Shown here: piece after piece, positions 1,690-50,040 of the stretch
Position numbering within the stretch: position 1 is the first letter of the stretch
Layout: the number at the start of each line of letters is the position of its first letter
NCBI GenBank assembly: GCA_903835075.1
Contig: CAILLM010000004.1
Coordinates: 80,532-144,531 of the forward strand
DNA length: 64,000 nucleotides
Direction of reading: 5' to 3'
From: Candidatus Staskawiczbacteria bacterium
GTDB lineage: Bacteria; Patescibacteriota; Minisyncoccia; Minisyncoccales; Staskawiczbacteraceae
The notes under the pieces: generated by a model
Seen by the model: only the letters and a program-made list of their open reading frames with translations
Database searches by the model: none
What the model was told of the DNA's origin: nothing
Program-made: the position numbers and the translations under genes

Positions 1690-4552
1690 TTTGAATAAAT
1701 TAAATAAAGAGCAAAAAGAAGCTGTGTTGCACGACAAGGGTCCGCTTTTAATTGTAGCAGGAGCTGGCACAGGGAAGACAACAGTTATAACCCAGCGCAT
1801 AGTTAATTTAATTGAGCAAAAGCTAGCTAGGCCAGAAGAAATTTTAGCGGTTACTTTCACTGAAAAAGCCGCACTTGAAATGGAAGAAAGGGTTGATAGG
1901 CTTTTAGATTATGGTTATACGGATCTGTGGATTTCAACCTTTCATGCTTTTTGCGAAAAAGTTTTAAGAGAAAATGCGCTAGATATTGGTTTGGCTCCTA
2001 ACTTTAAAATGTTAGATGGAACAGCCTCTTGGCTTTTAGCTAGGCAAAATTTAGATAAGTTTGATTTAAAATATTATAAATCTTTGGGAAATCCTACGAA
2101 GTTTATTCAAGCTTTAATTTCTCATTTTTCTCATTGCAAAGACCAAGAAGTATATCCAGAAAATTATTTAGAATATGCCAACACCCTAAAAACTACTAAT
2201 GACGACATAGAGGGTCAAGAAACAGAAAGAGTCAAAGAGGTCGCAAACGCTTACCGTGTTTACCAGCAAATTTTGTTAGATAACGGCTCTTTAGACTTTG
2301 GAGACTTAATAAACTATTGTTTAAAACTATTCAAAAAACGACCTTTAATTTTAAAAAAATACAGAGAAAAATTTAAATATATTTTAGTTGATGAATTCCA
2401 AGATACTAATTGGGCTCAATATGAATTAATCAAGATATTAGCGGAGCCAGAAAATAATTTAACTGTTTGCGCTGATGATGACCAGGCAATATACAGATGG
2501 CGCGGAGCTTCTTTTTCCAACATCATAAAATTCAAAGAAGATTTTCCCGAGGCTAAACAAATTTCCCTTATAAATAATTATAGGTCTAGCCAAAACATTT
2601 TAGACCAGTCATATAATTTTATAAAACAAAATGATCCAGATAGACTAGAATTTAGAATTAAAATAAATAAAAAATTAGTTGCTAATATTCCAGAAAAAGG
2701 AACTATAAAACATATTCACTGTAAAACTTTGGAGCAGGAAGTTGGACAAGTTGTAAAGAAAATTTTGGAAATTAAAAAAAGCGATAAAAAGATTTCATAC
2801 AGCGAATTTGCAATTTTAGTTAGGGCAAATGATTCAGCAATTCCATTTATTAGAGCCTTAGAGCGTGCACAATTGCCGTATCAATTTTTAGCTTCAAGGG
2901 GTCTTTATTCTAAGCCAGTAGTTTTAGATATAATTTCTTATTTTAAAATATTAGATAATTATCATGAAGGAATTGCAACATACAGAATTTTAAGTTTGCC
3001 ATTTTTAGAAATTGATAATGCAGACATAGCTACAATAACTCAATATAGCCACAAAAAAACAAAGTCTTTATTTGAGTCGCTACAGGAATTAACTCTTATT
3101 GCCGGTATATCTAAAAATACACACGAGAAAGTGGCTTTTCTATTAAGTTTGATACAAAAACATAGCGAAATGGCGAGAGACAAGGGGGTCTCAGAGGTTT
3201 TAGTCAATTTTTTAGTTGACTCAGGATACTTAGAATATATTAAAGATGACCAAGATAAAATAGATTTAGTAAACCAATTTTTAAAGAAAACAAAACAATT
3301 TGAAGATAATAACTTAGAGCCAACCTTGAAGAGCTTTATGGAGCAAATGACCCTTGAAATTGAATCTGGTGAGGAGGGCAAATTGGAATTTGACCCAGAA
3401 CAGGGCCCTGACATGATTAAAGTAATGACAATCCACGGAGCTAAAGGATTAGAGTTTAAATATGTATTTTTAGTAGGCATGGTAGACAGAAGATTTCCAA
3501 CAGACCAAAGAAAAGACCCAATAGAATTACCAGATGCTCTTATTAAAGACATAAAACCAACTGGAGATGTCCACTTGCAGGAAGAAAGAAGGCTTTGTTA
3601 TGTTGCCATGACTAGGGCTAAAAATGGTCTTTACTTTACTTCAGCAGATGATTACGGTGGACAAAGAAAAAAGAAATTATCTAGATTTTTAACAGAAATG
3701 GGATATAAACAAGAAGATTTATCTTCGGTTGCGGAAAGTGAATTATTAAAAGAAAGAAATAAGGTCATAGCAATAAAGCCAAAATATTCTTATGCTATTC
3801 CAGATCATTTTTCTTTTTCTCAATTAGCTATTTATGAAAAATGTCCGTTACAATATAAATTTCAATATATATTAAAAATTCCTCAAAAAGGAAAAGCAGT
3901 TTTTTCTTTTGGAAGTACAGTGCACAACACTTTCCACCAATTTTTAAAACTAGTTAATGAAAATCCCTCCTCCGCCGAGGCTACGGAAGGGTCGCTCAAA
4001 AATTTAAGAGAAATTTATGAGCGAAATTGGATTGATGAATGGTATGAATCTAAAAAACAAAAACAAGATTATAGAAAAAATGGTGAAAGAATAATAAAAA
4101 ATTTTTATGATAATTTTTTAAAAAATCCGCCCAAACTTTTGGAGATTAATGGTTCACTAGCGCTTGAAACTCCTTTTAATTTAAAAATTGGGGAAGACAC
4201 AATTTATGGAAGAATAGATAGAATTGATAATAATGATGGCGAGATTGAAATTATAGATTACAAAACCGGCAAACCCAAAGAAAAGCTAACCCCAGAAGAA
4301 AAGGAGCAACTTTTAATATACCAAATGGCTGCCCAAGAAGTTTTGGATATAAAACCCCACAAGCTTACTTATCATTATTTAGAAGAAGATAAGAAAATTT
4401 CATTTTTGGGGACAGAGCACGAAATAGAAAATTTGAGAGAAAAAATAAAAGGAATAATTAAAAAAATTAAAAATAACGAGTTTGATGCAAAGCCAGGTTT
4501 TAATTGTGAGTATTGCGACTTTAAAGACTTGTGTGATTTTGCCCAAAGATAG
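1679..4552 (+). CDS. UvrD/PcrA/AddA-type superfamily-1 helicase fused to a C-terminal PD-(D/E)xK nuclease with an Fe-S Cys cluster
   Basis: Walker A AGAGTGKT, DEFQDT, YRWRGA, TIHGAKGLEF and VAMTRAK helicase motifs. The C-terminal RecB/AddB-like nuclease has C...CEYCDFKDLC. Confidence 0.9.
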   Translation: MAIDLNKLNKEQKEAVLHDKGPLLIVAGAGTGKTTVITQRIVNLIEQKLARPEEILAVTFTEKAALEMEERVDRLLDYGYTDLWISTFHAFCEKVLRENALDIGLAPNFKMLDGTASWLLARQNLDKFDLKYYKSLGNPTKFIQALISHFSHCKDQEVYPENYLEYANTLKTTNDDIEGQETERVKEVANAYRVYQQILLDNGSLDFGDLINYCLKLFKKRPLILKKYREKFKYILVDEFQDTNWAQYELIKILAEPENNLTVCADDDQAIYRWRGASFSNIIKFKEDFPEAKQISLINNYRSSQNILDQSYNFIKQNDPDRLEFRIKINKKLVANIPEKGTIKHIHCKTLEQEVGQVVKKILEIKKSDKKISYSEFAILVRANDSAIPFIRALERAQLPYQFLASRGLYSKPVVLDIISYFKILDNYHEGIATYRILSLPFLEIDNADIATITQYSHKKTKSLFESLQELTLIAGISKNTHEKVAFLLSLIQKHSEMARDKGVSEVLVNFLVDSGYLEYIKDDQDKIDLVNQFLKKTKQFEDNNLEPTLKSFMEQMTLEIESGEEGKLEFDPEQGPDMIKVMTIHGAKGLEFKYVFLVGMVDRRFPTDQRKDPIELPDALIKDIKPTGDVHLQEERRLCYVAMTRAKNGLYFTSADDYGGQRKKKLSRFLTEMGYKQEDLSSVAESELLKERNKVIAIKPKYSYAIPDHFSFSQLAIYEKCPLQYKFQYILKIPQKGKAVFSFGSTVHNTFHQFLKLVNENPSSAEATEGSLKNLREIYERNWIDEWYESKKQKQDYRKNGERIIKNFYDNFLKNPPKLLEINGSLALETPFNLKIGEDTIYGRIDRIDNNDGEIEIIDYKTGKPKEKLTPEEKEQLLIYQMAAQEVLDIKPHKLTYHYLEEDKKISFLGTEHEIENLREKIKGIIKKIKNNEFDAKPGFNCEYCDFKDLCDFAQR
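3965..3996 (+). repeat. GC-rich hairpin mini-insert, in frame in the helicase gene (encodes PSSAEATEGSL)
   Basis: ccctcctccgccgaggctacggaagggtcgct sits in AT-rich coding DNA. Stems ccct/aggg and tccg/cgga. Shares CCGCC-gAGGCTacGG with the copies at 29101 and 49103. Confidence 0.5.
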
Positions 4553-4604
4553 GAACTATTTTTGTTATTCCTACGTATTAATATAATAAAAAATAAATAT
4601 TAAA

Positions 4605-5738: not shown

Positions 5739-6054
5739 TTTTGATGATTTTAAAAAATTAGACATAAGAATGGGCAAGATTCTCTCGGCTGAAAGAATTG
5801 AAGGGTCTGATAAATTACTAAAATTAGAGGTTGATTTTGGGGAAGACAGGCGTCAAATATTGGCTGGAATAGCCCAATTTTATGCCCCAGAGTCACTTGT
5901 GGGGAAAGAGTGTCCTTTTGCCTATAACCTAGCCCCGCGCGTCATGAAGGGGCTAGAGAGCCAAGGGATGCTTATGTGCCCCTCAGATGAGGCTGGCAGA
6001 CCAGTATTATTACACCCCGATAAAGAGGTGCTTGCGGGTAGTATAATTAAATAG
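5725..6054 (+). CDS. tRNA-binding domain protein (CsaA/Trbp111-like OB fold)
   Basis: FKKLDIRMGKILSAERIEGSDKLLKLEVDFG...RQILAGI...LVGKEC..NLAPRVMKGLESQGMLM matches the EMAP/Trbp111 tRNA-binding domain pattern. Confidence 0.8.
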   Translation: METINFDDFKKLDIRMGKILSAERIEGSDKLLKLEVDFGEDRRQILAGIAQFYAPESLVGKECPFAYNLAPRVMKGLESQGMLMCPSDEAGRPVLLHPDKEVLAGSIIK

Positions 6055-6059
6055 TTAAT

Positions 6060-6899: not shown

Positions 6900-6921
6900 A
6901 AATATTAATTGTCCCAAAAAT

Positions 6922-9669: not shown

Positions 9670-10228
9670 TCCTATGTTAGAAACTCTTGAAGACAAAGAA
9701 TTAATAAAAAAATATTTGAAAGGCGAAGCACGAGCCTTTGATTTTTTGGTTGAAAAGAATTTAAAATTAATTTATAATTTTGTATATAAAAATGTTGGCA
9801 ATGAAGCTAGCGCAGAAGATATAACTCAAGAAGTTTTTATTAAAGTTTGGAAGAATATCAAAAAATTTGACCAAACTAAAAGCTTTAAGCCGTGGATTTT
9901 CCAAATAGCCAAAAATACTTCGATTGATTTTTTAAGAAAAAAGAAGAGCATACCATTTTCTAAATTTGAAAATGAAAAAGGGCAAAATGTGTTGGTTGAG
10001 AACACACCAGCTAAGCCTACCAATTTATTAGAAAATTTAAGTGATAAAAAAACATTGGCAACCGCAATGCACAATTTGTCTGAGAAGGAGCAAAAACTTA
10101 TTAATCTCCGGCATGCAGAGGGGCTTAGTTTTAAAGAAATTGCAGGACGGCTTAAGGAATCAGTGAACACAATAAAGAGCAGGTATCGTAGAAGTCTTTC
10201 TAATTTAAGGAAAAATATACACAAATAA
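9662..10228 (+). CDS. ECF-type RNA polymerase sigma-70 family factor
   Basis: Region 2 (DITQEVFIKVWKNIKKFD...FKPWIFQIAKN) and region 4 HTH (LSFKEIAGRLKESVNTIKSRYRRSL). Confidence 0.85.
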   Translation: MYNPMLETLEDKELIKKYLKGEARAFDFLVEKNLKLIYNFVYKNVGNEASAEDITQEVFIKVWKNIKKFDQTKSFKPWIFQIAKNTSIDFLRKKKSIPFSKFENEKGQNVLVENTPAKPTNLLENLSDKKTLATAMHNLSEKEQKLINLRHAEGLSFKEIAGRLKESVNTIKSRYRRSLSNLRKNIHK

Positions 10229-10269
10229 GCACCAAAATACCATATTCAAGCGTAATAATAATATAAAAC

Positions 10270-10662
10270 ATGGAAAACTCCTACATAGAGCCTCCCCAAG
10301 AATTATTAGGAAGAATATTAAAACGCATTCATAACGAAGAGCGTCTTTTAGTTTTAAGAAGAATTTTTATATTTTCAGCCATGTTGCTGACTTCTTTAGC
10401 GGCATTTATTCCAACACTTAAAATACTTTTTTCTGATTTTAACAAATCAGGATTTATCAGCTTCTCTTCTTTGGCTTTCTCGGATTTTTCTTCAGTTGTA
10501 GCCAATTGGCAAAGCTTTACAATGATTTTGTTGGAATCTTTGCCAGCGGTAAGTTTGGCATTATTTTTGGCAGTTTTATTAACATTTTTGCAATCAGCAA
10601 AGTCTTTAACAAAAAATATTAAAACAATATCTGGCATAAGCCATTTAAAAATTGCTGGATAA
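10270..10662 (+). CDS. Putative anti-sigma factor-like membrane protein
   Basis: Lies immediately downstream of the ECF sigma gene. Short cytoplasmic N-terminus followed by 3 TM helices. Assigned by position only. Confidence 0.4.
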   Translation: MENSYIEPPQELLGRILKRIHNEERLLVLRRIFIFSAMLLTSLAAFIPTLKILFSDFNKSGFISFSSLAFSDFSSVVANWQSFTMILLESLPAVSLALFLAVLLTFLQSAKSLTKNIKTISGISHLKIAG

Positions 10663-10668
10663 AAATAA

Positions 10669-11136: not shown

Positions 11137-11172
11137 GCATTCTTATTCTTAATAAAATTAAATTTTTTTAAA

Positions 11173-12894: not shown

Positions 12895-12903
12895 ATTAAT
12901 AGA

Positions 12904-14813: not shown

Positions 14814-14849
14814 AATTAAAAATAATTATTAAAAAATAATATAAATCAT

Positions 14850-15822: not shown

Positions 15823-15918
15823 GCTTGCATTTTAAAAATTTTGTTGTAATGTATTAGTATGCAGTCGGGACAGCAATTTGAAAATCCGACAATCAAACCA
15901 ACCAACCATATTATCGCA

Positions 15919-17493
15919 ATGAGCACACAAAGTACACAGACTACAAGAGCACTGTTTAGTGTTTCAGACAAAACCGGCTTAGCGAAATTCGCCGAGGAAC
16001 TAGGTCTTTTCGGCATTCAAATTCTGTCGACCGGCGGAACTGCCAAGGAATTGAGAAAAGCCGGAATTCCTGTTACTGATGTCTCCGAATATACCGGCGC
16101 ACCGGAGTTGTTTGACGGCAGGCTTAAGACGTTGCACCCGAAAGTGCATGGTGGTTTGCTCCAGCGTCGTCGTAACAAAAAAGATATCGAGGAGGCTGCG
16201 GCAAACAATATACCACAAATCGATTTCGTTGTGGTGAACCTTTATCCCTTCGAACAAACCGTCGCTAAACCCGATACGACATTTGACGACGCCATTGAAA
16301 ACATCGACATTGGTGGCCCCTCGATGCTTCGTAGCGCCGCAAAGAACTTTGCCGATGTCACCGTTGTGATTGACCCGGCCGATTATCCCCGCGTTATTGG
16401 ATGCATGCGCGAGAACGACGGCAAAACGACACTCGCATTGCGGCGGGAATTGGCTCTGAAGGTTTTTGAGCGGACCAGCCGTTACGACGCCGCCATTCTT
16501 ACGTATCTTGAGAGCCAAGATACTGACAATGCCTCGGTTATGCCCTCAACGCTTCGTCTTTGTTTGCCAAAAGCACAGGACCTCCGTTACGGCGAAAATC
16601 CACACCAAAAGAGTGCGCTTTATGGCGACTTTTGGAAGTATTACAGTCAGCATGGTGGCAAAGAACTTTCCTACACCAATATTCTGGACATTGCCTCGGC
16701 CTCGACGTTGATAGACGACCTTGGTGATGATTCAATCGCGATACTGAAACATACGACACCATGCGGCGTTGCCATTGACGGCACATCGCCAGTTGAAGCG
16801 TGGAATCTTGCTTTTGCCACAGACAAAGATTCTCCCTTTGGTGGCGTGATTGTTTTGCCTTGGAAAACGGAAGTAGACACTGACCTTGTGGATGTTCTCA
16901 AGGACATTTTTGTGGAAATAGTCATTGCTTCAAGTTTCACGCCTGGAGCGCTGGCGGCTCTTCAAAGAAGGAAGAATCTGAGAATCATCCAACGCACCGG
17001 TATCCCGCCTTTCGATTTGGATTTGAAATCAATTCCGGGTGGAATGTTGGTGCAAGAGCGGGATGTTCTTCGGGAAGCGTGGAGCGACTTCAAGGTCGTG
17101 ACTAAACGGCTACCTACCGAAGAAGAAAAGTTTGCCATGATGTTTGCTTGGAAGGTTGTCAAAAACGCCAAGTCAAATGCCATGGTTTACGCCAAATACC
17201 AAGGTGGAACTTATCGTACCTTGTGCATTGGCGCCGGTCAGACCAGCAGAGTGGATGCATCCAAAATTGCGATTTGGAAGTCTGAACAAGCCGACCTATC
17301 GCTGGTTGGCAGTGTCCTTGCTAGTGAAGCATTCATCCCATTTGCAGACGGTGCGGAAGCAGCATTCAAGGCGGGCGCAACTGCCATAATACAGACCGGA
17401 GGTAGTATCCGAGACAAAGAGGTGATTGCTGCCGCAGATGCAGCTGGGGCAGCAATGGTGATGACCGGTTATCGCCATTTCAGACATGGTTAG
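15919..17493 (+). CDS. purH: Bifunctional AICAR formyltransferase / IMP cyclohydrolase
   Basis: RALFSVSDKTGL...LSTGGTAK...GRLKTLHPKVHGGLL (MGS-like IMPCH domain), followed by an AICARFT domain through to the YRHFRHG C-terminus. I prefer the ATG at 15919 (MSTQSTQ); the ORF track start at 15859 adds 20 non-conserved residues. Confidence 0.9.
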   Translation: MSTQSTQTTRALFSVSDKTGLAKFAEELGLFGIQILSTGGTAKELRKAGIPVTDVSEYTGAPELFDGRLKTLHPKVHGGLLQRRRNKKDIEEAAANNIPQIDFVVVNLYPFEQTVAKPDTTFDDAIENIDIGGPSMLRSAAKNFADVTVVIDPADYPRVIGCMRENDGKTTLALRRELALKVFERTSRYDAAILTYLESQDTDNASVMPSTLRLCLPKAQDLRYGENPHQKSALYGDFWKYYSQHGGKELSYTNILDIASASTLIDDLGDDSIAILKHTTPCGVAIDGTSPVEAWNLAFATDKDSPFGGVIVLPWKTEVDTDLVDVLKDIFVEIVIASSFTPGALAALQRRKNLRIIQRTGIPPFDLDLKSIPGGMLVQERDVLREAWSDFKVVTKRLPTEEEKFAMMFAWKVVKNAKSNAMVYAKYQGGTYRTLCIGAGQTSRVDASKIAIWKSEQADLSLVGSVLASEAFIPFADGAEAAFKAGATAIIQTGGSIRDKEVIAAADAAGAAMVMTGYRHFRHG

Positions 17494-17516
17494 CAGAGGC
17501 TAACAAATTTTACAGA

Positions 17517-17547
17517 CCCGCAACAGAAATGTTGCGGGATTTTTTTT
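17517..17547. terminator. Bidirectional rho-independent terminator between the convergent purH and OCD genes
   Basis: cccgcaaca-gaaa-tgttgcggg (9-bp stem) followed by a T8 run. Confidence 0.85.
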
Positions 17548-18523
17548 AGAAAATTTTTATTTCTTGGCCAATTCCTTTTTCTACAGCTTCCCTGTAAACC
17601 ATTGAGGCAGTAAATAAATCTTGCAGAGCAAGTCCAGTTGAATCAAAAACAGTAATTTCATTATCATTTTCTCTGCCTACTTTTAGTCCAGCAACAATTT
17701 CGCCTAAAGAGCCATAAATATCTTCTTTTTTTATAATTCCTTTAGTCACAGGAACATTTATTTCTCCAGAGTGTGAGGCTTGTGTCCAATCATCAACAAC
17801 TATTTTTGCACGTTTTAAAATTTCTGGCTCTAGCTCTTCTTTGCTTTCAGCGTCAGCGCCAACTGCATTTATGTGAGCCCCAGGGACAACCCATTCATTT
17901 TTAACAATTGGTTGTCGTGAGGGTGTGGTTGTAGTTACAATGTCTTGTTTACAAACTTCTTCCAGCTCAGCACTTTTTATTTCAATGCCAATTTTTTTTA
18001 ACTCAGCAGAAAGTTTTTCAATATTTTTTTCATTAACATCATAAACAAGGATTTCTTGCAGTTTAATTGTGTGGGCAGTAGCAGCTATTTGAAATAAGGC
18101 TTGTTGGCCAGCGCCCACAACTCCCATTGTGCGGGCATATTTTTTAGCAAGATACTTTGCTGCCACAGCTCCCGCAGCTCCTGTTCTCATGCCCGTAATA
18201 TATGTGCCATCCATCAAAGCAATAGGCGAGCCTGTTTCTGCATCATTTAAAACTATAACTGCTCCCACAGTAGGTAAGTTATTTTGGGGGTTGTCGGGGT
18301 GTACGTTAACAATTTTTGTACCTGCCATTTTTAGTTCTTCTGAAAAACTTGGCATAACTCGTAGGTCCCCATTATTTTTTTTAAAATATAAATAAGTTTT
18401 TGGTGGCATATCAACTTCACCTTTTCCATATTTTAAAAACGCTAGCTCAATTTGTCTAACCACCTTATCAATTTGTGATAAGGGAATTAATTGTTTTACT
18501 TCTTCTTGAGTTAAAATAAGCAT
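17546..18523 (-). CDS. Ornithine cyclodeaminase / mu-crystallin family protein (archaeal-type alanine dehydrogenase-like)
   Basis: Length and motifs match the family: GTKIVNVHP.N, ITGMRTGAAGAVAAKYLA, Rossmann GVVGAGQQA, VGADAESKEEL. Confidence 0.8.
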   Translation of the reverse strand: MLILTQEEVKQLIPLSQIDKVVRQIELAFLKYGKGEVDMPPKTYLYFKKNNGDLRVMPSFSEELKMAGTKIVNVHPDNPQNNLPTVGAVIVLNDAETGSPIALMDGTYITGMRTGAAGAVAAKYLAKKYARTMGVVGAGQQALFQIAATAHTIKLQEILVYDVNEKNIEKLSAELKKIGIEIKSAELEEVCKQDIVTTTTPSRQPIVKNEWVVPGAHINAVGADAESKEELEPEILKRAKIVVDDWTQASHSGEINVPVTKGIIKKEDIYGSLGEIVAGLKVGRENDNEITVFDSTGLALQDLFTASMVYREAVEKGIGQEIKIF

Positions 18524-27225: not shown

Positions 27226-29178
27226 ATGTCAAAAATATTAGGAATTGATTTAGGTACAACTAATTCGGCTATGGCCATTGTAGAAGGTGGTGATGCAAAA
27301 ATAATTGAAAATAAAGAAGGCGCAAGAACTACGCCTTCGATTGTGGCTGTTACAAAATTTGGGGAAAGAACAGTTGGTGTTTTGGCAAAAAGACAAGCTG
27401 TCACAAACCCGCAAAATACAATTTTTTCAGTTAAGAGATTAATTGGAAGAAAATTTTCTGACCCAGAAGTTCAGAAAGATAAAAAAACATTACCTTACGA
27501 GATTAAAGAATCAGCTGACGGTGGAGTCGATGTTAAAATGGGTGACAAATGGTTAAATCCAGCAGAAATTTCAGCAATGATTTTGCAAAAGTTAAAAGCT
27601 GATGCGGAAGCAAAAATTGGTGAAACAATTACAGATGCAATTATAACTTGCCCAGCATATTTTGATGACTCACAAAGAAAAGCTACAAAAATTGCCGGAG
27701 AAATTGCAGGCTTTAATGTAAGAAGAGTTATAAACGAACCAACTGCAGCAGCTTTGGCCTATGGATTAAATAAAAAGAAAGATGAGAAAATTGTAGTTTA
27801 TGACTTTGGTGGTGGAACTTTTGATGTAACAGCAATGGAAATTGTAGCCTCAGAAGGTGAAGATAAAGAGCAACAGGGAAGTATTGAAGTAAAATCAACT
27901 GGTGGTGACACTCACTTGGGTGGAGATGATTTTGACCAAAAAATTATGCATTGGATTGTTGCCGAATTCAAAAAAAATAGTGGAGTTGATCTTTCAAAAG
28001 ACAATTCAGCTTTGCAAAGAATCAAAGAAGCGGCTGAAAAAGCAAAAATTGAATTGTCTAGCAGTATAGAAGCTCAAATTAATTTGCCATTTATCACTTC
28101 AGATCAAGAAGGTCCAAAACACTTGGATTTAAAATTGAAACGCGCTGAGTTTGAAAATATGGTACAGGAAGACATTGATAGATCTATTAGCTTGTTAAAA
28201 CAAACATTGAAGGAATCTGGCTGGGAAGTAAAAGACATTAATGAAATTGTGTTGGTGGGCGGGCAAACAAGAATGCCAAAAATTCAAGAAGAAATTAAAA
28301 AACTTTTTGGCAAAGAACCAAACAAAGAAGTTAACCCCGATGAAGTTGTTGCAATTGGAGCTGCTATTCAGGGTGGAATTATGCAAGGAACAGCTGGAAA
28401 AGATGTTTTATTGCTTGATGTAACTCCATTATCTTTAGGAATTGAAACATTTGGTGGAGTAGATACAATTTTAATTGCAAAAAATACAACTGTGCCAACT
28501 TCAAAAAACCAAACTTTCTCAACAGCTGCTGACAGCCAGCCAAGTGTTGAAATCCATGTTTTGCAGGGTGAGCGTCCAATGGCTGCAGACAATAAAACAT
28601 TAGGTAGGTTTATGCTTGATGGAATTCCGCCAGCACCACGAGGCGTGCCACAAATTGAAGTTTCTTTTGACATTGATGCAAATGGAATTTTAAATGTTTC
28701 AGCAAAAGATAAGGCAACAGGAAAATCACAATCAATTAAAATTGAAGGTTCTTCAGGAATTTCGAAGGACGAAGTTGAAAGAATGAAAAAAGATGCAGAA
28801 ATGCACGCAACTGATGACAAAAAGAAACAAGAAGAAATTGAAGTTAAAAATACTGCAGATGCTTTGGTTTATACTTGTGAAAAAACTCTAAAAGATGCTG
28901 GTGACAAAGTAAAACCAGAAGATAAAAAAGACGTTGAGGACAAAATAACTGCCTTGAAAGAAGCACAAAAGGGTGATAATATGGAAGAAATTAAAGTAAA
29001 AACTAAAGAACTTTCCGAATTAATGCAAAAAGTTGGGGGAGAACTATATAAACAAGAGCAAACCCAAACTAACCCAGATGAAAAAGATATCCCACCCGCC
29101 TCCGCCGAAGGCTCTGGCGAGGCAAAGAAAGAAAATCAGCCAGAAGCTGAAGAAGGGAAGTTTAAAGAAGAGAAATAA
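27226..29178 (+). CDS. dnaK: Chaperone DnaK (Hsp70)
   Basis: [27 protein letters not shown], and the full substrate-binding and lid domains. Confidence 0.98.
29101..29134 (+). repeat. GC-rich hairpin mini-insert, in frame in the dnaK C-terminal tail (encodes [11 protein letters not shown])
   Basis: cccacccgcctccgccgaaggctctggcgaggca. The stem is cctc(c)gcc/ggcgagg with a 9-nt loop. Confidence 0.5.
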
Positions 29179-29322: not shown

Positions 29323-30438
29323 ATGGATTATTACGAACTTCTTGGGGTGCAGAAGACTGCATCTGAGGATGAGATAAAAAAAGCATTTCATAAACTAGCC
29401 CACAAATATCACCCAGATAAAGGTGGTGATGAAAAAAAGTTTAAAGAAATAAACGAGGCCTATCAAGTGCTTTCAGATAAACAAAAAAGAGCTCAGTACG
29501 ATCAGTACGGAAGAGTTTTTGATCAAGGCGCTGGTGATGCAGGGCAAGGTTTTAATTGGGCTTGGGGAAACGGAGCACAAGGCGAAGGCGTTGAATTTGA
29601 TATGGGTGATATTGGCGATGTATTTGAAGAATTTTTTGGAGCAGGTGCTTTTGGTGGAGGAAGACGAGCAACAAAAAAAGATGCTAGAAAAGGAAAAGAT
29701 ATACAAGTTGATATTGAAATTAATTTAGAAAGAACTTTGAAAGAATCTGTTGAAAAAATAAACTTAGCAAAACAAGTTGTTTGTAACAGGTGTGCAGGTG
29801 TAGGGGCTGAGCCAGGCACAAAAGTAAAAGAATGTTTTTCTTGCAGGGGTTCAGGGCAAGTTCAACAAGTTAAGAAAACAATTTTTGGAAGTTTTACTTC
29901 TTTGGGTGTTTGCCCTGAATGTAAGGGTGAGGGAACAATTCCCGAAAAGCCATGTAATGTTTGTAAAGGTGAAGGCCGAACAAAGGGTCAAGAAACAATA
30001 GATGTTACAATTCCCGCAGGCATTGATACTAATCAAGTTATAAGAATTGATGGAAAAGGTGAGGCAGGAAGAAAAGGCGCTAAAGCAGGGAATTTGTTTG
30101 TGCGAATTTTTGTTAAAAAACATAATGTATTTGATAGAAGGGGGGATGACTTGTTTAGTTTTGTAGATATTAATTTTTCACAGGCTGCAATGGGAGATAA
30201 TGTTGAAATGAAAATATTGGATGGGGACCTGCCAACCGGCAGGCAGGCAAACATTTTACTGGAAGTTCCCGCAGGCACGGAAACAGGTAAAGTTTTAAGG
30301 ATTTCTGGGAAGGGAATTCCGCATTTTGGAGGATATGGCAGGGGAAACTTGTATGTTGAATTTAAGGTAAAAACACCTAAAAAATTGTCTAAAAAACAGA
30401 AAGAATTGTTTGAGAGATTGAAAGAAGAAGGATTTTAG
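29323..30438 (+). CDS. dnaJ: Co-chaperone DnaJ (type I)
   Basis: J domain with YHPDK, a Gly-rich linker, and four CxxCxGxG repeats ([32 protein letters not shown]). Confidence 0.96.
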
Positions 30439-30467
30439 TGTAATATGGGTAACATATGCTCCCGTAG

Positions 30468-30539
30468 CTCAATGGTAGAGCAGTAGCCTTTTAAGCTATT
30501 GGTTCCGCGTTCGAGTCGCGGCGGGAGCACATGCGAAAA
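30468..30539 (+). tRNA. tRNA-Lys (anticodon UUU)
   Basis: Hand-folded cloverleaf. Acceptor GCTCCCG/CGGGAGC, D arm GCTC-AATGGTA-GAGC, anticodon loop CT-TTT-AA, T arm CCGCG-TTCGAGT-CGCGG. No encoded CCA. Confidence 0.9.
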
Positions 30540-31909: not shown

Positions 31910-31928
31910 TCCTGAGTTCGTCGAAGGA
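31910..31928 (+). repeat. Intergenic copy of the CCTGAG-N5-CGAAGG hairpin motif
   Basis: tcctgagttcgtcgaagga has the same core as 40406-40426 and 41017-41037. Confidence 0.45.
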
Positions 31929-38900: not shown

Positions 38901-40135
38901 GTAAAGCAGTTTCTGGAGGAGAGGACGTTCCCCCAATATCACCACCATTATCTGGCAGTTGGCTAGCAAAGGGCACAGGAGGGACAGGGGTTTATTCTTA
39001 CACATGGGGTGGAGATGCCTCAGGTAATTCAATAACCTCTTCATTTAATTACACAACAGGCGTTGGTTTAAAAACAGCAACTATTGTTGTCCACTCGGGC
39101 GGATTTGATAGTTTACCAGCTACTTGCTCAATAACTGTTACAGACGGCCCTATTGATGGTATTTGTGGCAGTGCCGCAACTACATACAGAACAGGGGATT
39201 CCTTTCCTGGTGATAACCAATATTGCACGTCGGGGACTGTTTGTAAGGCAGGGTCTACCTGCCCGCCAGAAAAAGACCCAGCGTCGCTTGGGACAACAAC
39301 CACATCTTGGATATGCAAGGGTATAAATGATGGTGCAAAAGACAGTGGTACTTGCACGGCAACAAGGTTAAAAGCTCCAACAATTGGCACATTATCTTTT
39401 AACATTAACAATTGTCCTAGTGCTAGCACATCTATTTCTGGGGCTAGTATAATGGGATTTGATTGGGGCGATTATCAAGATACAAATAATGCTGGACTTT
39501 TGCAAACAGGTTTCAAATTGCAAGTTTCTGAAGACCCAAATTTCAACACAATAATATTTGAATCTACCAGTTATCACCAATTATATATTTTGCCTTCAGG
39601 CGTTCAATCAGATAATCCAAAAATTTCTTTTGCAAACCCAGCAGTGCCACGTTATTGGAGAGTCAAAATAACCAATGTTGCAGGTGATTCAGCGTGGTAT
39701 TATGGAAATAAAAATACAGAGTTAATAGATGGTAGCGGAAACCATATTTATAACGTTACAACCAACCAAGATTTAGCAGCTTCATTTACAACTCCAATTC
39801 ATCCTTATCCAAATCCTAAAATTACATTTTCAGCTTCTCCTGTAATAGTTAAAAATGCAGTGTATTTTTCAGGAAGAGATTCAGCTTGTTATGCTGATAA
39901 TGGGGCTGCTATTGATTGTTTAGATAATTGGGCTAGCTGGGCGCTAGATGGTAGTAATACTTATACTGTTTCCAAGTTAAACCCGCCAGCTCCTTATACT
40001 TACAACACAATAGGAACATATAACCAAAAACTAAAAATTACAGATGCTCAGGGATATAGTTGTACGGCACAAGAACCTTTAACTGTGAAGGCTTCGTCTA
40101 ATATTCCATTGTGGAAAGAAATATCACCATTCTAG
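35912..40135 (+). CDS. Giant (1407 aa) secreted multi-domain surface protein: Ig-like tandem repeats, FN3, four four-Cys modules, and a C-terminal PKD-like domain
   Basis: Signal peptide ending AYA. Repeated IDTTPP/IDATPP/IDTTLP/IDSIAP domain boundaries. FN3-like PGAPTLFVDSVTDSEIDLS...YEVQRSLDGGNTW. Cys modules such as YCGTADGQ...WHCNSTDGGEASGDCTA. PKD-like YTYNTIGTYNQKLKITDAQG. Confidence 0.8.
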   Translation: MEKIITKHQKIIFLILPIFIALSFFIVPQKAYAANVSSVYVSSATKTDGTTYNATISNTGVPANDRATYSGLDVNIHPYGVGTIIYINVLLSSSVVTSVSGTPTLTLETGTVDRAASYYSLSSDGRTLTFKYIVQAGDNSSDLNYVSSTSLSGGTIKVGTTTLTITLVNPTSNYSLGYNNSVVIDTTPPTNFSITNPTPPTTQASSKTVSAISLNTDTVSMYMAKTQNTTCNGSGSLSFLAYVPSTSIIFNNESDNGTYVCFAAEDAAGNWAYALSNIVSGIDATPPSVTSITSVAGSTAPPYFDITNDNNTAVVYVASSDAVTCKWGTADTSYDTMTACTSLSSCNLTFAGLGVHTAYMRCLDAAGNKSTSSKVVTYTIDTTLPAVSSITSVAGDNSSPYYDATDDGSTIVNYVATSHVADCHWNTSNVLYNAMAHDCGSSTSCTLNLTGQGSKTVFMRCIDSAGNKGDGVASVYSFLYTIDSIAPVAPGTPVLTTGGSTTTSTTPSFTVSCETGDTVYLYDNGIVASSYYTCSSGSVTAAVSPAISNGTHPITAKQQDTAGNWSSASGVASIVVSVLDTTGPFNVSVSYDTTTTATSSVVITYNYGYDSGSGLNLATGEIRRMVATYSGGVCGSYSYFTDLHFGYNDSPYTDSTVQTGHCYRYQYLIYDNAGNPATTTGGVVIITNTPSVPGAPGAPTLFVDSVTDSEIDLSATASNNGSAITKYEVQRSLDGGNTWENSTTVSGSTFIYQDTDISPLLLGLNNTDEISWLCTGTCGGSKTCTATRTGGTPAYCGTADGQIYDADVTGYGDDTQCEPGSPSSTAFPTAGNSVTWHCNSTDGGEASGDCTASRSESSPGTCNATYDGKNFYELSWSSNLCSAGDVQNFSENDTGWTWDCEGTNNGSTDSCSANLKVDGDCGLAAQSMYVYEYTGTHPGNYITDYDLCYAGTVPTGDVLLPWQGGSTVSWHCGGLNGGSASIECSAYREMPLPEASCKAVSGGEDVPPISPPLSGSWLAKGTGGTGVYSYTWGGDASGNSITSSFNYTTGVGLKTATIVVHSGGFDSLPATCSITVTDGPIDGICGSAATTYRTGDSFPGDNQYCTSGTVCKAGSTCPPEKDPASLGTTTTSWICKGINDGAKDSGTCTATRLKAPTIGTLSFNINNCPSASTSISGASIMGFDWGDYQDTNNAGLLQTGFKLQVSEDPNFNTIIFESTSYHQLYILPSGVQSDNPKISFANPAVPRYWRVKITNVAGDSAWYYGNKNTELIDGSGNHIYNVTTNQDLAASFTTPIHPYPNPKITFSASPVIVKNAVYFSGRDSACYADNGAAIDCLDNWASWALDGSNTYTVSKLNPPAPYTYNTIGTYNQKLKITDAQGYSCTAQEPLTVKASSNIPLWKEISPF
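36764..37372 (+). repeat. Tandem duplication of a ~100-aa Ig-like domain inside the giant surface gene
   Basis: PPSVTSITSVAGSTAPPYFDITNDNNTAVVYVA...AYMRCLDAAGNKS...YTIDTT aligns with LPAVSSITSVAGDNSSPYYDATDDGSTIVNYVA...VFMRCIDSAGNKG...YTIDSI. Confidence 0.8.
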
Positions 40136-40152
40136 AATTGTAAATAAAATAT

Positions 40153-40548
40153 ATGATACAGGAAGAATTCGAAAAATTAGTTGAGCAGGGAATTGATGCA
40201 ATTGACGAAAAGTTTTTATCTGCGTTGAAAAATGTTGAAATTGTTATTGAAGACGACCCCACGCCAGCTCAAATAGAAAAATTAAAACTTCACGGGGCAA
40301 TGCTTTTTGGTTTGTATGAAGGTGTGCCGTTAACAAAAAGACAATCTTACGGACAAGTTTTACCCGATAAAATTACAATTTTTAAAAATCAAATTGAGAG
40401 GGCCTGCCCTGAGCCTGCCGAAGGGTCTATGTCTCATAGAGAGTGTATTAAAAAAATAGTTACCAATACTGTTTGGCACGAAATAGCTCATCATTTTGGA
40501 ATGGATGAAGAGCAAGTACGTTCGGCAGAACGTAAACGAAGCAGCTAA
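40153..40548 (+). CDS. DUF1025-type putative zinc metallopeptidase (zincin-like)
   Basis: N-terminal EFEKLVEQGIDAIDEKFL..L.NVEIVIEDDP, then LFGLYEGVPLTKR and the HEIAHHFG zinc motif. Confidence 0.75.
   Translation: MIQEEFEKLVEQGIDAIDEKFLSALKNVEIVIEDDPTPAQIEKLKLHGAMLFGLYEGVPLTKRQSYGQVLPDKITIFKNQIERACPEPAEGSMSHRECIKKIVTNTVWHEIAHHFGMDEEQVRSAERKRSS
40400..40427 (+). repeat. GC-rich hairpin mini-insert, in frame (encodes ACPEPAEGS)
   Basis: gggcctgccctgagcctgccgaagggtc. Stem ccct/aggg around an 11-nt loop, with the core CCTGAG-N5-CGAAGG. Confidence 0.5.
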
Positions 40549-40550
40549 GC

Positions 40551-40576
40551 AAAAAAATCTCCTTTCGGAGATTTTT
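40551..40576. terminator. Bidirectional rho-independent terminator between convergent genes
   Basis: aaaaaatctcc-tttc-ggagatttttt: a perfect hairpin flanked by an A-run and a T-run. Confidence 0.85.
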
Positions 40577-40583
40577 TATTGTT

Positions 40584-41222
40584 TTATTTTCTGCCCTCTA
40601 GCGCGGATTTTAATGTTTCGTCGTCGGCGTATTCAAGTTCTCCGCCAACAGGAATTCCTCTGGCCAAGTGAGTGATCTTCCAGCCCGAGGCTGGTCCGCC
40701 TTGGGCGGATGAGATTTCTTTAATTACTTGCTCTATCAATACAGAAGTTGTTCGGCCCTCGGGCGTTGGATTTAAGGCAACAATAATTTCCGAAAAGTTA
40801 TTTTGTAAAATACGTTTTTTTAATTCTTCAACGCGCAAGTGACCAGTATCTTCTTTTCTCATTGTGGCAACTGTTCCGCCTAAAATAAAATATAGACCGT
40901 TAAATTTTTTTGTGTTTTCAATTGAAATTAAATCAGTTTCTTTTTCTATAATGCAAAGCAAATTTTTATTTCGTGCTGGATTTCTGCAGATAAAACAGAT
41001 GCCATCATCTATTTTACCCTGAGCGGAGTCGAAGGGTTCGTAGGGGTTAAAACAAAATTCGCAAAGTTTTATTTTATTTTTTAATTCTAAAATTGCATTA
41101 ATTAATTCATCAGTTTTTTCTTTTGGTAATTTCATCAAGTAGTAAGCAAAACGGCCAGCTGTTCGTGAGCCAACCGTTGGAAATTTTCTAAAAATATTTA
41201 TAAGTTTGTTTACAGTATCCAT
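40584..41222 (-). CDS. recR: Recombination protein RecR (carries two short insertions)
   Basis: HhH N-terminus (FPTVGSRTAGRFAYYL), a Cys4 zinc finger (CEFC...CFIC), Toprim (LCIIEKETDLISIE), and a C-terminal HLARGIPVGGELEYADDETL. Confidence 0.9.
   Translation of the reverse strand: MDTVNKLINIFRKFPTVGSRTAGRFAYYLMKLPKEKTDELINAILELKNKIKLCEFCFNPYEPFDSAQGKIDDGICFICRNPARNKNLLCIIEKETDLISIENTKKFNGLYFILGGTVATMRKEDTGHLRVEELKKRILQNNFSEIIVALNPTPEGRTTSVLIEQVIKEISSAQGGPASGWKITHLARGIPVGGELEYADDETLKSALEGRK
40679..40708. repeat. Twin perfect 6-bp GC hairpins, in frame in recR (encode SAQGGPASGW on the minus strand)
   Basis: ccagcc-cga-ggctgg (40679-40693) is immediately followed by tccgcc-ttg-ggcgga (40694-40708). 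Confidence 0.55.
41016..41047. repeat. GC-rich hairpin mini-insert inside the recR zinc-finger loop (encodes PFDSAQGK on the minus strand)
   Basis: accctgagcggagtcgaagggt has the core CCTGAG-N6-CGAAGG with stem accct/agggt. It widens the finger to C-x2-C-x18-C-x2-C. Confidence 0.55.
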
Positions 41223-41230
41223 AACTGAAA

Positions 41231-41251
41231 ATTTCTAATTTCTAATTTCTA
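41231..41251. repeat. 7-nt microsatellite (atttcta)x3 at the dnaB stop / recR upstream junction
   Basis: Three perfect tandem copies plus a partial fourth. The third copy contains the dnaB TAG stop (complement of 41249-41251). Confidence 0.8.
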
Positions 41252-42607: not shown

Positions 42608-42657
42608 AATAATATATCTTATACACCGGCGATTTTAAAAGCAAGAGGATAAAGTGT

Positions 42658-44055: not shown

Positions 44056-44056
44056 T

Positions 44057-44716: not shown

Positions 44717-44803
44717 AAGTAAGATTATGTCATATTAACAGATTTTTTGCTACTTGTTAATAGCAATTTGTTTGTGGTAATATGACCTAATAAAAATAAA
44801 CAT

Positions 44804-45355
44804 ATGAATAAAAAAGATATATTGTTTGCATTTTTGTGTGGGTTGGCAGTGGCTTGGATAGCCTCAGACTTCATAACTAAATATGGCTGGTTATTTTATA
44901 TTGTTTTACCCCTACTTTCTATACTTGGTTTGTGGGTAGTTGAATTAATTGGGCGAAAATTTTTGTTTGCTCACCAAGCAGGTAAGTTTGCTTTGGCGGG
45001 CGCATTTGCTGATGTTGTTGATATAAAGGTTTATCAGCTAGTAATTTTGGCTTTGCCATTTTCTATTGTTATAAAAGCATTTTCATTTTTAGTGGCAACT
45101 GCTATAAAATATTGGGCAAACAAAACGTGGTCATTTTCTGCTCAAAATAATCCAGCCAAGGGCTGGGAAATACTAAAATTTTTTAGCGTAACAATTGTTG
45201 GGTTAATAATAGATATTGCTGCTTTTTATTATTTAGAAAAAGTTCACATTGGAATTTCAGCAACTCTTTGGTTGGAATTATGCATAATAATTGCAGCTCT
45301 AATTACTGCAATTTGGAACTTTCTTGGTTACAAGTTTTTAGTATTTAAAAAATAA
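44804..45355 (+). CDS. GtrA-like membrane protein
   Basis: Four to five TM helices and the C-terminal WNFLGYKFLVFKK typical of the GtrA family. Confidence 0.6.
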   Translation: MNKKDILFAFLCGLAVAWIASDFITKYGWLFYIVLPLLSILGLWVVELIGRKFLFAHQAGKFALAGAFADVVDIKVYQLVILALPFSIVIKAFSFLVATAIKYWANKTWSFSAQNNPAKGWEILKFFSVTIVGLIIDIAAFYYLEKVHIGISATLWLELCIIIAALITAIWNFLGYKFLVFKK

Positions 45356-45372
45356 AATTATTTTTTAATATT

Positions 45373-47091: not shown

Positions 47092-47101
47092 CGTAAGCCA
47101 C

Positions 47102-47154
47102 AACTTTTTTGCCACGTGGCAAAAAAGTTATCAGGTTGCCATATGGTAACCTGA
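47102..47154. repeat. Two adjacent long palindromes between the tandem paralogs
   Basis: aacttttttgccac|gtggcaaaaaagtt (47102-47129) is a perfect 14+14 palindrome with a CACGTG centre. tcaggttgccat|atggtaacctga (47131-47154) is 12+12 with one mismatch. Confidence 0.85.
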
Positions 47155-47170
47155 AGAAAATGAAATTTTT

Positions 47171-48892: not shown

Positions 48893-48909
48893 AATAATTT
48901 AAAAATAAT

Positions 48910-50040
48910 ATGGCAAACAATTTAGTATTATACAGAAAATATAGACCGCAGACATTTGAAGAAGTGGTTGGGCAAGAGCATGTTGTCCAAACTTTAACCA
49001 ATTCAATAAAAGCAAATAATATTTCACATGCATATTTGCTTTGTGGGCCAAGGGGAAGCGGAAAAACAACTATTGCTAGGTTATTTGCCAAAGCAATTAA
49101 TTGCCTCGCCCGCAAGGCTACGGCCGAGGGTGAAAAACCGCAAAGCTTTGAACCATGTAATAAGTGTGACTCATGCTTAGAAATTATGGCTTCAAGGTCT
49201 ATGGATTTAGTTGAAATTGATGCTGCATCTCACACAGGAGTGGATGACGTAAGGCAATTAATTGAAGGCATAAAATTTGCTCCAGTAAAATCAAAATATA
49301 AAATATTTATTATTGACGAATGTCACCAGCTTTCTAAATCAGCATCTAATGCTTTGCTAAAAACGTTAGAAGAGCCACCAGCTCACGCAATTTTTATTTT
49401 GGCCACAACAGAAGTTCACAAAATGTTGCCTACAATTTTATCTAGGTGTCAAAAGTTTGATTTTAAAAGATTGCAAGTTCCTGAAATTATAAAAAAGTTG
49501 CAGTTTATTTCAAAAAAAGAAAACGTGAAGTTTGATGAATCTGCTTTGTCTTTGATTGCTTTGAATTCGCGAGGCTCGTTTCGTGACGCAGAATCTTTAA
49601 TGGATGAATGCTTAAGTTTTTCTGGCAATAACGGCACAATAAAAACAGAAGACATAAAAGAATTATTGGGAATTGTTGAGGTTGCTGAAATTTCAAAATT
49701 TGTAGATTTCTTGGTTTCTAAAAATACAAAAAATGCAATTGAGTTTTTGAATTCTATTATAGATGCAGGGGTTGATTTACAGGAATTTACAAAAACTTTA
49801 GTTTTTTATTTAAGGCAGGAATTACTTTTAAAAATTGATTCAAACTTTTTAAACTTACAAAATTCTGGTCTTTCTAATCAGGAATTGGAAAAAATGAAAG
49901 AGCAAATAGCCAGCTTATCTCAAAAAGATTTGCAAAATATGTTGGAATTATTTATTGAAGCGGAGAATAAAATAAAATATTCAGCTATTGCTCAACTGCC
50001 ATTAGAGTTGGCGGTTGTCACCCTAACTCAAAAAGATTAG
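48910..50040 (+). CDS. dnaX: DNA polymerase III subunit gamma/tau (short form, domains I-III)
   Basis: YRPQTFEEVVGQEHV, Walker A GPRGSGKTT, zinc module C...C..C..C, DECHQLS, and SRCQKFDF. Confidence 0.92.
   Translation: MANNLVLYRKYRPQTFEEVVGQEHVVQTLTNSIKANNISHAYLLCGPRGSGKTTIARLFAKAINCLARKATAEGEKPQSFEPCNKCDSCLEIMASRSMDLVEIDAASHTGVDDVRQLIEGIKFAPVKSKYKIFIIDECHQLSKSASNALLKTLEEPPAHAIFILATTEVHKMLPTILSRCQKFDFKRLQVPEIIKKLQFISKKENVKFDESALSLIALNSRGSFRDAESLMDECLSFSGNNGTIKTEDIKELLGIVEVAEISKFVDFLVSKNTKNAIEFLNSIIDAGVDLQEFTKTLVFYLRQELLLKIDSNFLNLQNSGLSNQELEKMKEQIASLSQKDLQNMLELFIEAENKIKYSAIAQLPLELAVVTLTQKD
49103..49130 (+). repeat. GC-rich hairpin mini-insert inside the dnaX zinc-module loop (encodes LARKATAEGE)
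   Basis: gcctcgcccgcaaggctacggccgaggg. Stem cctcg.ccg/cgg.cgagg (one mismatch) with loop caaggcta. Confidence 0.5.

Follow-up and report, generated by a model that had tools for sequence, protein, structure and literature searches.

Short GC-rich repeats lie in frame within conserved genes of a Candidatus Staskawiczbacteria contig and are probably selfish, REP-like elements

Why should conserved housekeeping genes in an AT-rich genome contain short islands of almost pure G+C that leave the reading frame intact? We address this question in a 64,000-nucleotide stretch of Candidatus Staskawiczbacteria DNA (assembly GCA_903835075.1, contig CAILLM010000004.1, positions 80,532 to 144,531; hereafter the window), which has a GC content of 35% and is densely coding. 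The closest relatives of its RecR, DnaX, and other proteins belong to Staskawiczbacteria-like and Nealsonbacteria-like Patescibacteria. An earlier note, made by a model that saw the letters alone, had picked out seven such islands, assigned six to two families with shared cores (type 1 and type 2) and one to a twin hairpin, and likened them to the Rickettsia palindromic elements (RPE). All seven are present, each where the note had placed it, and Pfam agrees on the host genes: a UvrD/PD-(D/E)XK helicase, DnaK, a Zincin_1 metallopeptidase, RecR, and DnaX. Because the element sequences match across at least seven independent metagenome assemblies of the same species, which recovered the same contig region with all covered elements identical, assembly artefacts are excluded.

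GC-rich islands alone are unremarkable. The window has 79, versus about 39 in shuffled sequences, and many are conserved Gly-rich motifs such as P-loops; the significance rests on the shared cores. The type-1 core, CCTGAG-N5/6-CGAAGG, occurs three times in the window (31911, 40408, and 41018), always on the plus strand, and is absent from 100 dinucleotide shuffles. The type-2 core, CCGC-N0-3-AGGCTNNGG, is also found three times (3972, 29102, and 49110), where 0.02 occurrences are expected. With two copies that the earlier note had missed, a GC hairpin in dnaJ and a decayed twin hairpin in gtrA, the window holds nine elements, eight of them intragenic, at a density of about one per 7 kb:

3965 to 3991, plus strand: type-2 element in the linker of the UvrD/PD-(D/E)XK helicase gene (1679-4552, Pfam); TCCGCC-GAGGCTA-CGGA within CCCT..AGGG; peptide SSAEATEG.
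29095 to 29121, plus strand: type-2 element in the C-terminal tail of dnaK (27226-29178); CGCC-GAAGGCTCT-GGCG; peptide PASAEGSGE; net +21 nt.
30226 to 30246, plus strand: GC hairpin in dnaJ (29323-30438, Pfam DnaJ), found by a hairpin scan; CCTGCC-AACC-GGCAGG(CAGG); peptide DLPTGRQ; net +21 nt.
31910 to 31928, plus strand: type-1 element, the sole intergenic copy; TCCTGAG-TTCGT-CGAAGGA.
40400 to 40427, plus strand: type-1 element in the Zincin_1 metallopeptidase gene (40153-40548); GGCCTG-CCCTGAGC-CTG-CCGAAGGG; peptide ACPEPAEG; net +24 nt.
40680 to 40709, minus strand: twin hairpin at site 2 of recR (40584-41222, minus strand, Pfam RecR); CCAGCC-CGA-GGCTGG plus TCCGCC-TTG-GGCGGA; peptide SAQGGPASGW.
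41013 to 41036, minus strand: type-1 element at site 1 of recR, in the zinc-finger loop between the CxxC pairs; net +24 nt.
45137 to 45166, plus strand: decayed twin-hairpin copy in gtrA (44804-45355); peptide SAQNNPAKGW.
49105 to 49131, plus strand: type-2 element in dnaX (48910-50040); CTCG-C-CCG-CAAGGCTA-CGG-C-CGAG; peptide LARKATAEG.

All six oriented copies lie on the plus strand, but given the agreement within families (p ~0.06) this strand bias is not significant.

Close relatives differ in carrying these islands, and recR displays this polymorphism at both of its sites: each is filled in some and empty in others of the 120 closest RecR proteins (67-100% identity). Site 1, whose coding strand reads CCC TTC GAC TCC GCT CAG GGT AAA (PFDSAQGK; CCCTGAGCGGAGTCGAAGGG on the plus strand), is filled in 34 of the 120 and empty in the remainder, with nested or long forms in P0009, P0040, and P0016. 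Site 2 lies in the loop ahead of the KITHLARG strand, with a net gain of 15-21 nt; its twin hairpin is present in 7 of the 120, and other fillers also occupy the site. Occupancy of one site is independent of occupancy of the other among RecR proteins with 70-79% identity, and some of the 120 carry a single insert. On a neighbor-joining tree built with the insert columns left out, presence at site 1 takes 28 changes versus 29.6 for shuffled tips, so there is no phylogenetic clustering. This pattern would reflect either rampant gain and loss or poor resolution of a tree of so short a protein; a single ancient, vertically inherited insertion at site 1 seems unlikely. The AlphaFold model of RecR places both inserts in coil of lowered confidence, with a low predicted local distance difference test (pLDDT) score at site 2. 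As a separate observation, the RecR zinc-finger loop of locus L008 (~10180-10270) holds a much longer filler of about 20 residues, PDSSTLRSVSNRADRTDLKQAPD, which is not GC-rich and contains the inverted repeat TTTCAAATCG...CAGATTTGAAA, so this permissive site accepts inserts of a different kind as well.

The copies had been proposed to be in-frame insertions placed in loops and tails. Codon alignments with orthologues bear this out for recR (two sites), dnaX, the zincin gene, and the dnaK tail, with net gains of 15-27 nt. The dnaX insert, CTC GCC CGC AAG GCT ACG GCC GAG GGT, adds 27 nt with clean junctions to the zinc module, where it lengthens the loop that joins NC to PCNKC; it is missing from 14 of 14 aligned orthologues, and loci L031 and L001 hold other fillers at the same site. 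The zincin copy is an 8-codon insertion relative to L001, L102, and L104, and the dnaK and dnaJ copies are each 7-codon insertions when aligned by codon with the L102 genes. All four of these inserts are lacking in the closest relatives with DNA for alignment. Predicted peptides that span insert junctions include NPYEPFDSAQGK and INCLARKATAEGEKPQSF. The helicase is where the proposal holds only in part. Its copy is in frame, but it sits in a linker that is hypervariable among 79 relatives, and because the window linker is shorter than in most of them there is no net insertion. Related peptides do occur in the helicase linker of several relatives (FAKASEG, PASAEATAGKK, ALRQAQGK, and the nested ALRQGYSTELNRSPQGK). 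The intergenic type-1 copy follows a terminator-like hairpin and its T-run at a distance of 3 nt and is not covered by a long open reading frame (ORF).

Identical elements recur in unrelated genes. The 19-mer CCCTGAGCCTGCCGAAGGG is shared between the zincin gene and the DegT aminotransferase gene of locus L028, where it lies on the opposite coding strand and is read as ALRQAQG rather than PEPAEG. The recR twin hairpin differs from that of L028 by 1 nt, inside the hairpin loop, and SAQGGSASGG, the peptide of this twin hairpin, appears in another gene of the distant locus L089. A palindrome resembling the dnaJ copy is present in MurD of L028. Across ~1 Mb of related Paceibacteria loci we count about 11 independent type-1 copies, with the consensus CCCTTCG(R)C-N2-4-GCTCAGGG(Y)AAR on the usual coding strand. 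In the common orientation, intragenic copies are read in each of the three frames, and in the reverse orientation two frames are in use. Because type-1 copies vary in this way in frame and orientation, the conserved unit is the DNA rather than the peptide. The excess of one orientation among intragenic type-1 copies (9 versus 2) is not significant when the frame containing TGA is allowed for (p ~0.12).

Other lineages carry elements of their own. A scan of orthologues in 17 gene families and 18 loci recovered about 30 lineage-specific, GC-rich, in-frame insertions. In L002, TCCGCCAGCTGGCGGA occupies two exact sites within 20 kb (dnaX and DegT), and the scan flags a third gene family; in L104, a GPAGG[HY]P palindrome is found in at least three genes and in both orientations. 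Other genomes have their own families, reaching at least three genes per 20 kb. Different elements strike the same loops across lineages, namely the dnaX zinc loop, the cysS loop, the FemAB loop, DegT, and both recR sites, and nested copies exist, as in recR of L101 and L102. The recR polymorphism, the inserts absent from relatives, the shared 19-mer, and the families elsewhere together support the RPE-like behavior that had been suggested for the window, that is, a dispersed family colonizing ORFs in frame.

What becomes of a copy once it is in a gene? Older copies keep the frame and the amino acids and drift synonymously to AT-rich codons. The intact DegT copy of L028 reads GCC CTT CGG CAG GCT CAG GGC, decayed DegT copies encode ESLRQSQAEF in L104 and NLRQAQK in L001, and the decayed recR copy of L042 encodes PFVKTQDKK. 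Because decayed copies keep their amino acids, the inserts appear to be translated, and this retention is the signature of translated sequence under protein-level constraint. The gtrA copy illustrates a second outcome. Only its second hairpin, CCAGCC-AAG-GGCTGG, is intact and the element matches the native loop in length. The GtrA relatives P0282 and P0286 carry the inserts SAPGGPASGG and SARGGSAWGG at this very position, and their native loop is progressively lost, so that relatives show the insertion-then-deletion intermediates. Younger copies are more conserved than nearby synonymous sites; in the recR twin hairpin 8 of 9 codons are identical, versus 90 of 153 outside it. Three causes could each account for this: the copies may have spread recently, they may be re-converted from other copies, or selection may act on the nucleic-acid sequence.

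The proposal that the islands fold into hairpins survives in part. The recR twin hairpin alone clearly beats its shuffles (dG = -12.5 kcal/mol, z = -4.47 as DNA). Type-1 copies, with nearest-neighbor parameters, are indistinguishable from theirs (z ~0 to -0.3 as DNA and ~-0.4 to -1.2 as RNA). Type-2 copies range from z = -0.3 to -2.0 (helicase, -0.34 as DNA; dnaX, -1.02; dnaK, -1.97 as DNA), and the dnaK, dnaJ (-1.72), and gtrA (-2.77) copies are moderate. The type-1 layout consists of a 4-bp CCCT/AGGG stem, G.A and A.G oppositions, a G-C pair, and a loop of 5-6 nt. For type 1, conserved bipartite core is a better term than hairpin; it has a 4-bp terminal inverted repeat and possibly tandem G.A pairs. 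Nearest-neighbor models may underestimate the stability of such motifs. GCGNAGC is a DNA mini-hairpin reported to be of extraordinary stability (review PMC13037366); it is matched exactly inside the pentaloop subtype of the type-1 core (GAGC-GNAG-C-CGAAG), appears as GCGGAGT in the recR copy, and is absent from two of the three window type-1 copies. The mini-hairpin is a structural motif and not a genetic element. Against Rfam 15, the elements have no match at the gathering threshold over the window, nor at E <= 10 over 40350-41100. Mimicry of a tRNA T-arm or D-arm, a hammerhead, a K-turn, and boxB were also considered and, judged on sequence only, none fits every copy. Rfam does identify tRNA genes at 30458-30529 and 51917-51987; the first of these accounts, through its T-arm, for the GC island at 30505-30521, which is no element. 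Further small GC hairpins, candidates only, lie in the gene for a 1407-aa Big_13 protein (39247-39263, GGCAGG-GTCTA-CCTGCC; 39277-39292, CCCAGCG-TC-GCTTGGG) and in a serine recombinase gene (55610-55622, CGGCG-CTA-CGCCG).

Is the type-1 core confined to this lineage? It is not. The pattern CCCTGAGC-N4-6-CGAAGGG matches at least 120 contigs of the IMG/VR collection, ranging from 31 to 71% GC, and 13 of the matching contigs listed carry more than one copy. The reversed control pattern matches 65 contigs across the whole collection, every match being single. Loops in 94 examined viral matches are far from random, with YTGT in 35 and G-N-A-G-Y pentaloops in about 20, and the outer stems vary between copies with complementarity kept. 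The exact 20-mer of recR site 1 recurs in viral contigs L113 and L114, and is found in contigs of 31% and of 67% GC. Some viral copies lie inside ORFs of 700-2000 residues, and the copy in L109 is followed by a terminator-like T-run. Because the core recurs in phage and prophage contigs of widely differing GC, with non-random loops, we regard it as cosmopolitan. The same collection is uninformative on type 2: 61 matches, mostly Ala-rich coding sequence in GC-rich contigs, are near a rough composition estimate. ORFs between inverted type-1 copies in multi-copy viral contigs look like ordinary phage ORFs, and no gene resembling a REP-associated tyrosine transposase (RAYT; REP, repetitive extragenic palindrome) was seen among them by reading the translations, no profile search having been made. 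BLAST of a 51-nt long form against plasmids gave two marginal matches only.

Another repeat was met beside these. The helicase relatives P0128 and P0172 contain linker peptides such as VIPGLTRNPESAH...LDSRFRGND, and the viral locus L131 has GTCATTCCCGCG...GCGGGAAT on both sides of a type-1 core. The peptides of P0128 and P0172 and the viral loci L131 and L180 seem to represent a further palindromic repeat of wide distribution, similar to REPs tagged with CGTC or TGTC, and in L131 its loop encloses a type-1 unit.

What, then, are the elements? In our judgement they are probably REP-like selfish miniature repeats of ~19-30 nt, GC-rich and partly palindromic, which belong to several families and proliferate in the AT-rich, gene-dense genomes of Paceibacteria. 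New copies arise at many places, and the survivors are in frame, free of stops, and located in zinc-finger loops, inter-domain linkers, and C-terminal tails. They appear to be transcribed and translated within the host protein as short loop peptides rich in Ala, Gly, Ser, Pro, Glu, or Gln. With time they either decay to AT-rich codons with the peptide kept or are accommodated by deletion of adjacent native residues that restores the loop length. The predominance of intragenic copies could follow from scarce intergenic space, with selection retaining mainly copies that are in frame. Spread would be by copy-and-paste acting on a folded single-stranded form of the element. The likely agent would be a trans-acting HUH/Y1-type enzyme, as proposed for REPs, and microhomology between element ends and target might assist the copying.

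Several observations weigh against this interpretation. Pfam detects no transposase, Y1/RAYT or other, in 35 window ORFs plus 9 genes with precomputed hits, a scan that left out about 12 ORFs at 20.5-27.0 kb and 63242-63946. Element junctions, including the clean ones of dnaX, dnaK, and dnaJ, have no target-site duplication. By inspection, neither GTAG nor CGTC is present as a terminal tag on the window elements; two type-2 copies have CTAC within the loop, and CGTC is internal to a single copy, the intergenic type-1 one. Genomes carry few copies, about one per 7-20 kb, and type-1 copies are not predicted to be stable hairpins. The target sites themselves are a further difficulty. At recR site 2 of another clade, an empty CCC TTG GGT has become CCC TTC GAC ACG GCT CAG GGC, a change that adds just 12 nt between an existing CCCTT and GGG, and empty recR site 1 (CCC TTC GAG GGA) is already similar to the element end. 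Templated synthesis would explain this pre-existing end similarity no less well than transposition. The L028 DegT element replaces seven codons with no change in length, the ancestral KKLEELQKEF being retained in six other lineages. Finally, site-1 codons of recR are identical at 5 of 6 positions within the element across 4 lineages, versus 52 of 132 outside it (Fisher p = 0.044), with a GC content at third codon positions (GC3) of 0.75 versus 0.26. Purely neutral selfish DNA would not predict this conservation or the GC3 excess.

The target sites and the DegT case bring in the strongest competitor, which we consider unlikely but well short of negligible. Here no enzyme is involved: a nascent strand with GC-rich microhomology (CCCTT) switches template, copies 10-30 nt from an existing copy, and returns through a second microhomology (GGG), giving an insertion or, occasionally, a same-length overwrite. 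Target duplications, tags, and a transposase are all unseen in the scanned window genes, as this would predict. Empty sites look like element ends (CCC TTG GGT at recR site 2, CCCTTCGAGGG at site 1), the same-length replacement in L028 shares CTT...CA with the ancestral sequence, and GC-rich codons held against a GC3 of 0.26 would suit repeated re-conversion. However, microhomology is scant or nil at the dnaX and dnaK insertions, and conserved Pro and Gly codons where loops begin and end may be all that lies behind the similarity of ends. Identical 20-mers at 31% and 67% GC call for horizontal movement or a common agent, beyond template switching of a local kind. Most events are plain insertions, about 30 versus one or two; only DegT of L028 is a clear same-length case, and the gtrA case is an insertion followed by stepwise deletion, with the intermediates in relatives. 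Templated overwriting was rejected on these counts as the main mechanism. In these alignments insertion is the rule and DegT of L028 the exception. We infer the ranking accordingly from the balance of these points: a selfish REP-like element mobilized in trans comes first, and enzyme-independent template switching second.

The conservation of young copies raises a different prospect, that the elements are functional signals under selection, such as RNA or single-stranded DNA hairpins for factor binding, for ribosome or polymerase pausing, for mRNA stability, or as marks for replication or recombination. Nucleotide conservation in the elements above that of synonymous sites and the strong GC3 excess speak for it, as do the constant viral core with co-varying outer stems and loops limited to YTGT or G-N-A-G-Y (the latter forming GCGNAGC), the terminator-like T-run after the L109 copy, and the location of window copies mostly in genome-maintenance and chaperone genes. 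We nevertheless give it little chance. The elements come and go in essential genes of very close relatives and keep no consistent position, they occur in both orientations and all frames relative to transcription, many are visibly decaying, and unrelated elements replace one another at the same loop. In addition, type-1 folding energies are no better than those of shuffles, and Rfam has no match.

An equally slim chance attaches to a bolder reading of the viral matches, in which the type-1 unit (CCCTGAGC-N4-5-CGAAGGG, with its 4-bp stem, tandem G.A pairs, and YTGT or GNAGY loop) is a cosmopolitan, self-propagating DNA motif of ~20 nt that moves between phyla and among phages and, with no transposase, enters genes. 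Its route, as part of the same doubtful reading, would be hairpin- or microhomology-templated synthesis, yielding both insertions and in-place overwrites. If this were true, no smaller mobile genetic unit would be known, and the type-1 motif would be a general supplier of new protein loops in reduced genomes.

We find it very improbable that the elements are DNA uptake signals, like the DNA uptake sequences (DUS) and uptake signal sequences (USS) of Neisseria and Haemophilus, accumulated through biased uptake and homologous recombination. DUS are enriched in genome-maintenance genes, and Patescibacteria encode competence machinery. The elements share with such signals a patchy distribution that is incongruent with the tree, and are in-frame motifs in tolerant regions and in genome-maintenance genes. 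Their density, however, is 10-20 times too low (~3 type-1 copies per 64 kb versus ~1 per kb for DUS and USS), there are several unrelated families per genome, the central spacer is variable, and whole-unit insertions dominate over a gradual build-up by point mutation. The view that nothing special is present, only ordinary Ala/Gly-rich linker variation or conserved GC-rich protein motifs, can point to the commonness of GC islands and Gly-rich motifs and to the Ala-rich coding sequence behind the viral type-2 matches, but it has next to no probability left and is effectively refuted by exact cores far above chance, by recR polymorphism and other segments missing from close orthologues, and by identical 19-20-mers in different frames and strands of unrelated genes, including the 19-mer shared with DegT.

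How do the elements compare with known systems? RPEs are ~100-150 bp long, contribute 30-50 encoded residues, are confined to Rickettsia, and have no associated transposase. They are reportedly the subject of Ogata et al. in 2000 and 2002. The elements share with RPEs the dispersal of palindromic repeats in frame in conserved, often essential genes, the translation of extra surface peptides, presence or absence between close relatives, and, as far as the scanned window ORFs show, the lack of an associated transposase. In-frame insertions absent from orthologues, which define RPEs, are found here in recR (two sites), dnaX, dnaK, dnaJ, and the zincin gene. Unlike RPEs, the elements measure 19-30 nt (6-10 residues), are found in Patescibacteria, and fall into several small, mutually unrelated families within a genome. 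Membership among RPEs fails on size alone, the net inserts being 15-27 nt or 5-9 residues.

REPs are closer in size. Intragenic REPs have been described in uvrA, recB, dnaE, ligase, and helicase genes of several phyla by Di Nocera et al. (2013, PMC3733652), who discuss RPEs beside them. With REPs inside replication and repair genes of other phyla on record (PMC3733652), the colonizing behavior is of a known kind. The elements have in common with GTAG- or CGTC-tagged REPs the size class of 20-40 bp, GC-rich imperfect palindromes, species-specific families, and in-frame cases in replication and repair genes; CGTC REPs have no associated transposase, and none was detected here in the window genes scanned. 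Association with a RAYT gene belongs to the GTAG class only, and Y1_Tnp gave no hit among the 35 scanned window ORFs and the 9 genes with precomputed hits. For the REP stem-loop, with a stem of 5-13 bp, the twin hairpin has two 6-bp stems and type 2 roughly fits, whereas type 1 has a canonical stem of only 4 bp and folds no better than its shuffles. REPs bear GTAG or CGTC unpaired at one end as a tag, lie mostly between genes, often form head-to-head dimers, and reach tens to hundreds of copies per genome, in contrast to the untagged, mainly intragenic (8 of 9 in the window), singleton (one twin), and few elements here. Assignment to tagged REPs thus fails on terminal tag, intergenic preference, dimer organization, and copy number. 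Miniature inverted-repeat transposable elements, defined by terminal inverted repeats, target-site duplication, and a length of 50-500 bp, are excluded by the lack of duplication and by a size below 30 nt. The definition of DUS and USS, a fixed 9-12-mer at ~1 per kb, does not fit either type, since each occurs three times in 64 kb and the spacer varies.

Yeast mitochondrial DNA has optional GC clusters, some of them in var1, that are 30-50 bp long, usually have AT target duplications, and are mostly intergenic. They too are short GC-rich palindromic islands in a very AT-rich genome, optional between strains, and some sit in protein-coding sequence without destroying the gene; they belong to a eukaryotic organelle and have no sequence relationship to the elements. 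Two reviews are related to this subject (PMC8811140, PMC4464245). The earlier note knew of no formal description of the elements, and we can add none: literature searches on characteristic insert peptides, and on Patescibacteria or the Candidate Phyla Radiation with REP or palindromic insertions, returned nothing relevant; the main text and supplements of Di Nocera et al. (PMC3733652) do not contain the type-1 core; and neither the literature searched nor Rfam provides a published name for it.

The window has other features of interest that are separate from the elements. Positions 52156-61494 look like a defense and mobile island. Its contents include a SIR2_2-domain protein, a 538-aa protein of unknown kind, a large serine recombinase on the minus strand (54821-56164), an N6/N4 DNA methylase with a DpnII-type endonuclease (56294-58023), and, at 58046-61494, an OLD-family AAA_15/TOPRIM ATPase with a UvrD-like helicase after it, which together resemble the Gabija pair GajA/GajB. 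Directly downstream of this Gabija-like helicase lies a LOOT RNA (RF03000; 61557-61675, plus strand), a full-length Rfam match scoring 85.3 bits versus a gathering score of 46.4, with a terminator-like hairpin next; it is unrelated to the elements. purH (AICARFT/IMPCHase, 15859-17493) falls within a 2-kb block (16001-18000) whose GC content of ~47%, versus 34% in neighboring blocks, suggests horizontal acquisition.

As far as we found, what is new is the phylum and the size of in-frame selfish palindromic repeats, previously undescribed in the literature searched. Three features merit further attention, namely their miniature size, their intragenic dominance in essential genes of a streamlined genome, and the way in which a 20-mer of cosmopolitan range is mobilized. 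In phage contigs the type-1 core recurs with loops kept within narrow limits, which suggests a widespread element that we could match to no described family. Patescibacteria genomes are usually described as streamlined and repeat-poor. If the elements are what we think probable, very short selfish repeats repeatedly reshape surface loops of core replication, repair, and chaperone proteins in this group, account for part of the length variation among its orthologues, and offer a ready marker of recent strain divergence. For annotators and structure predictors they would be a caution that such Ala/Gly/Gln-rich loops may be parasitic DNA rather than functional motifs.

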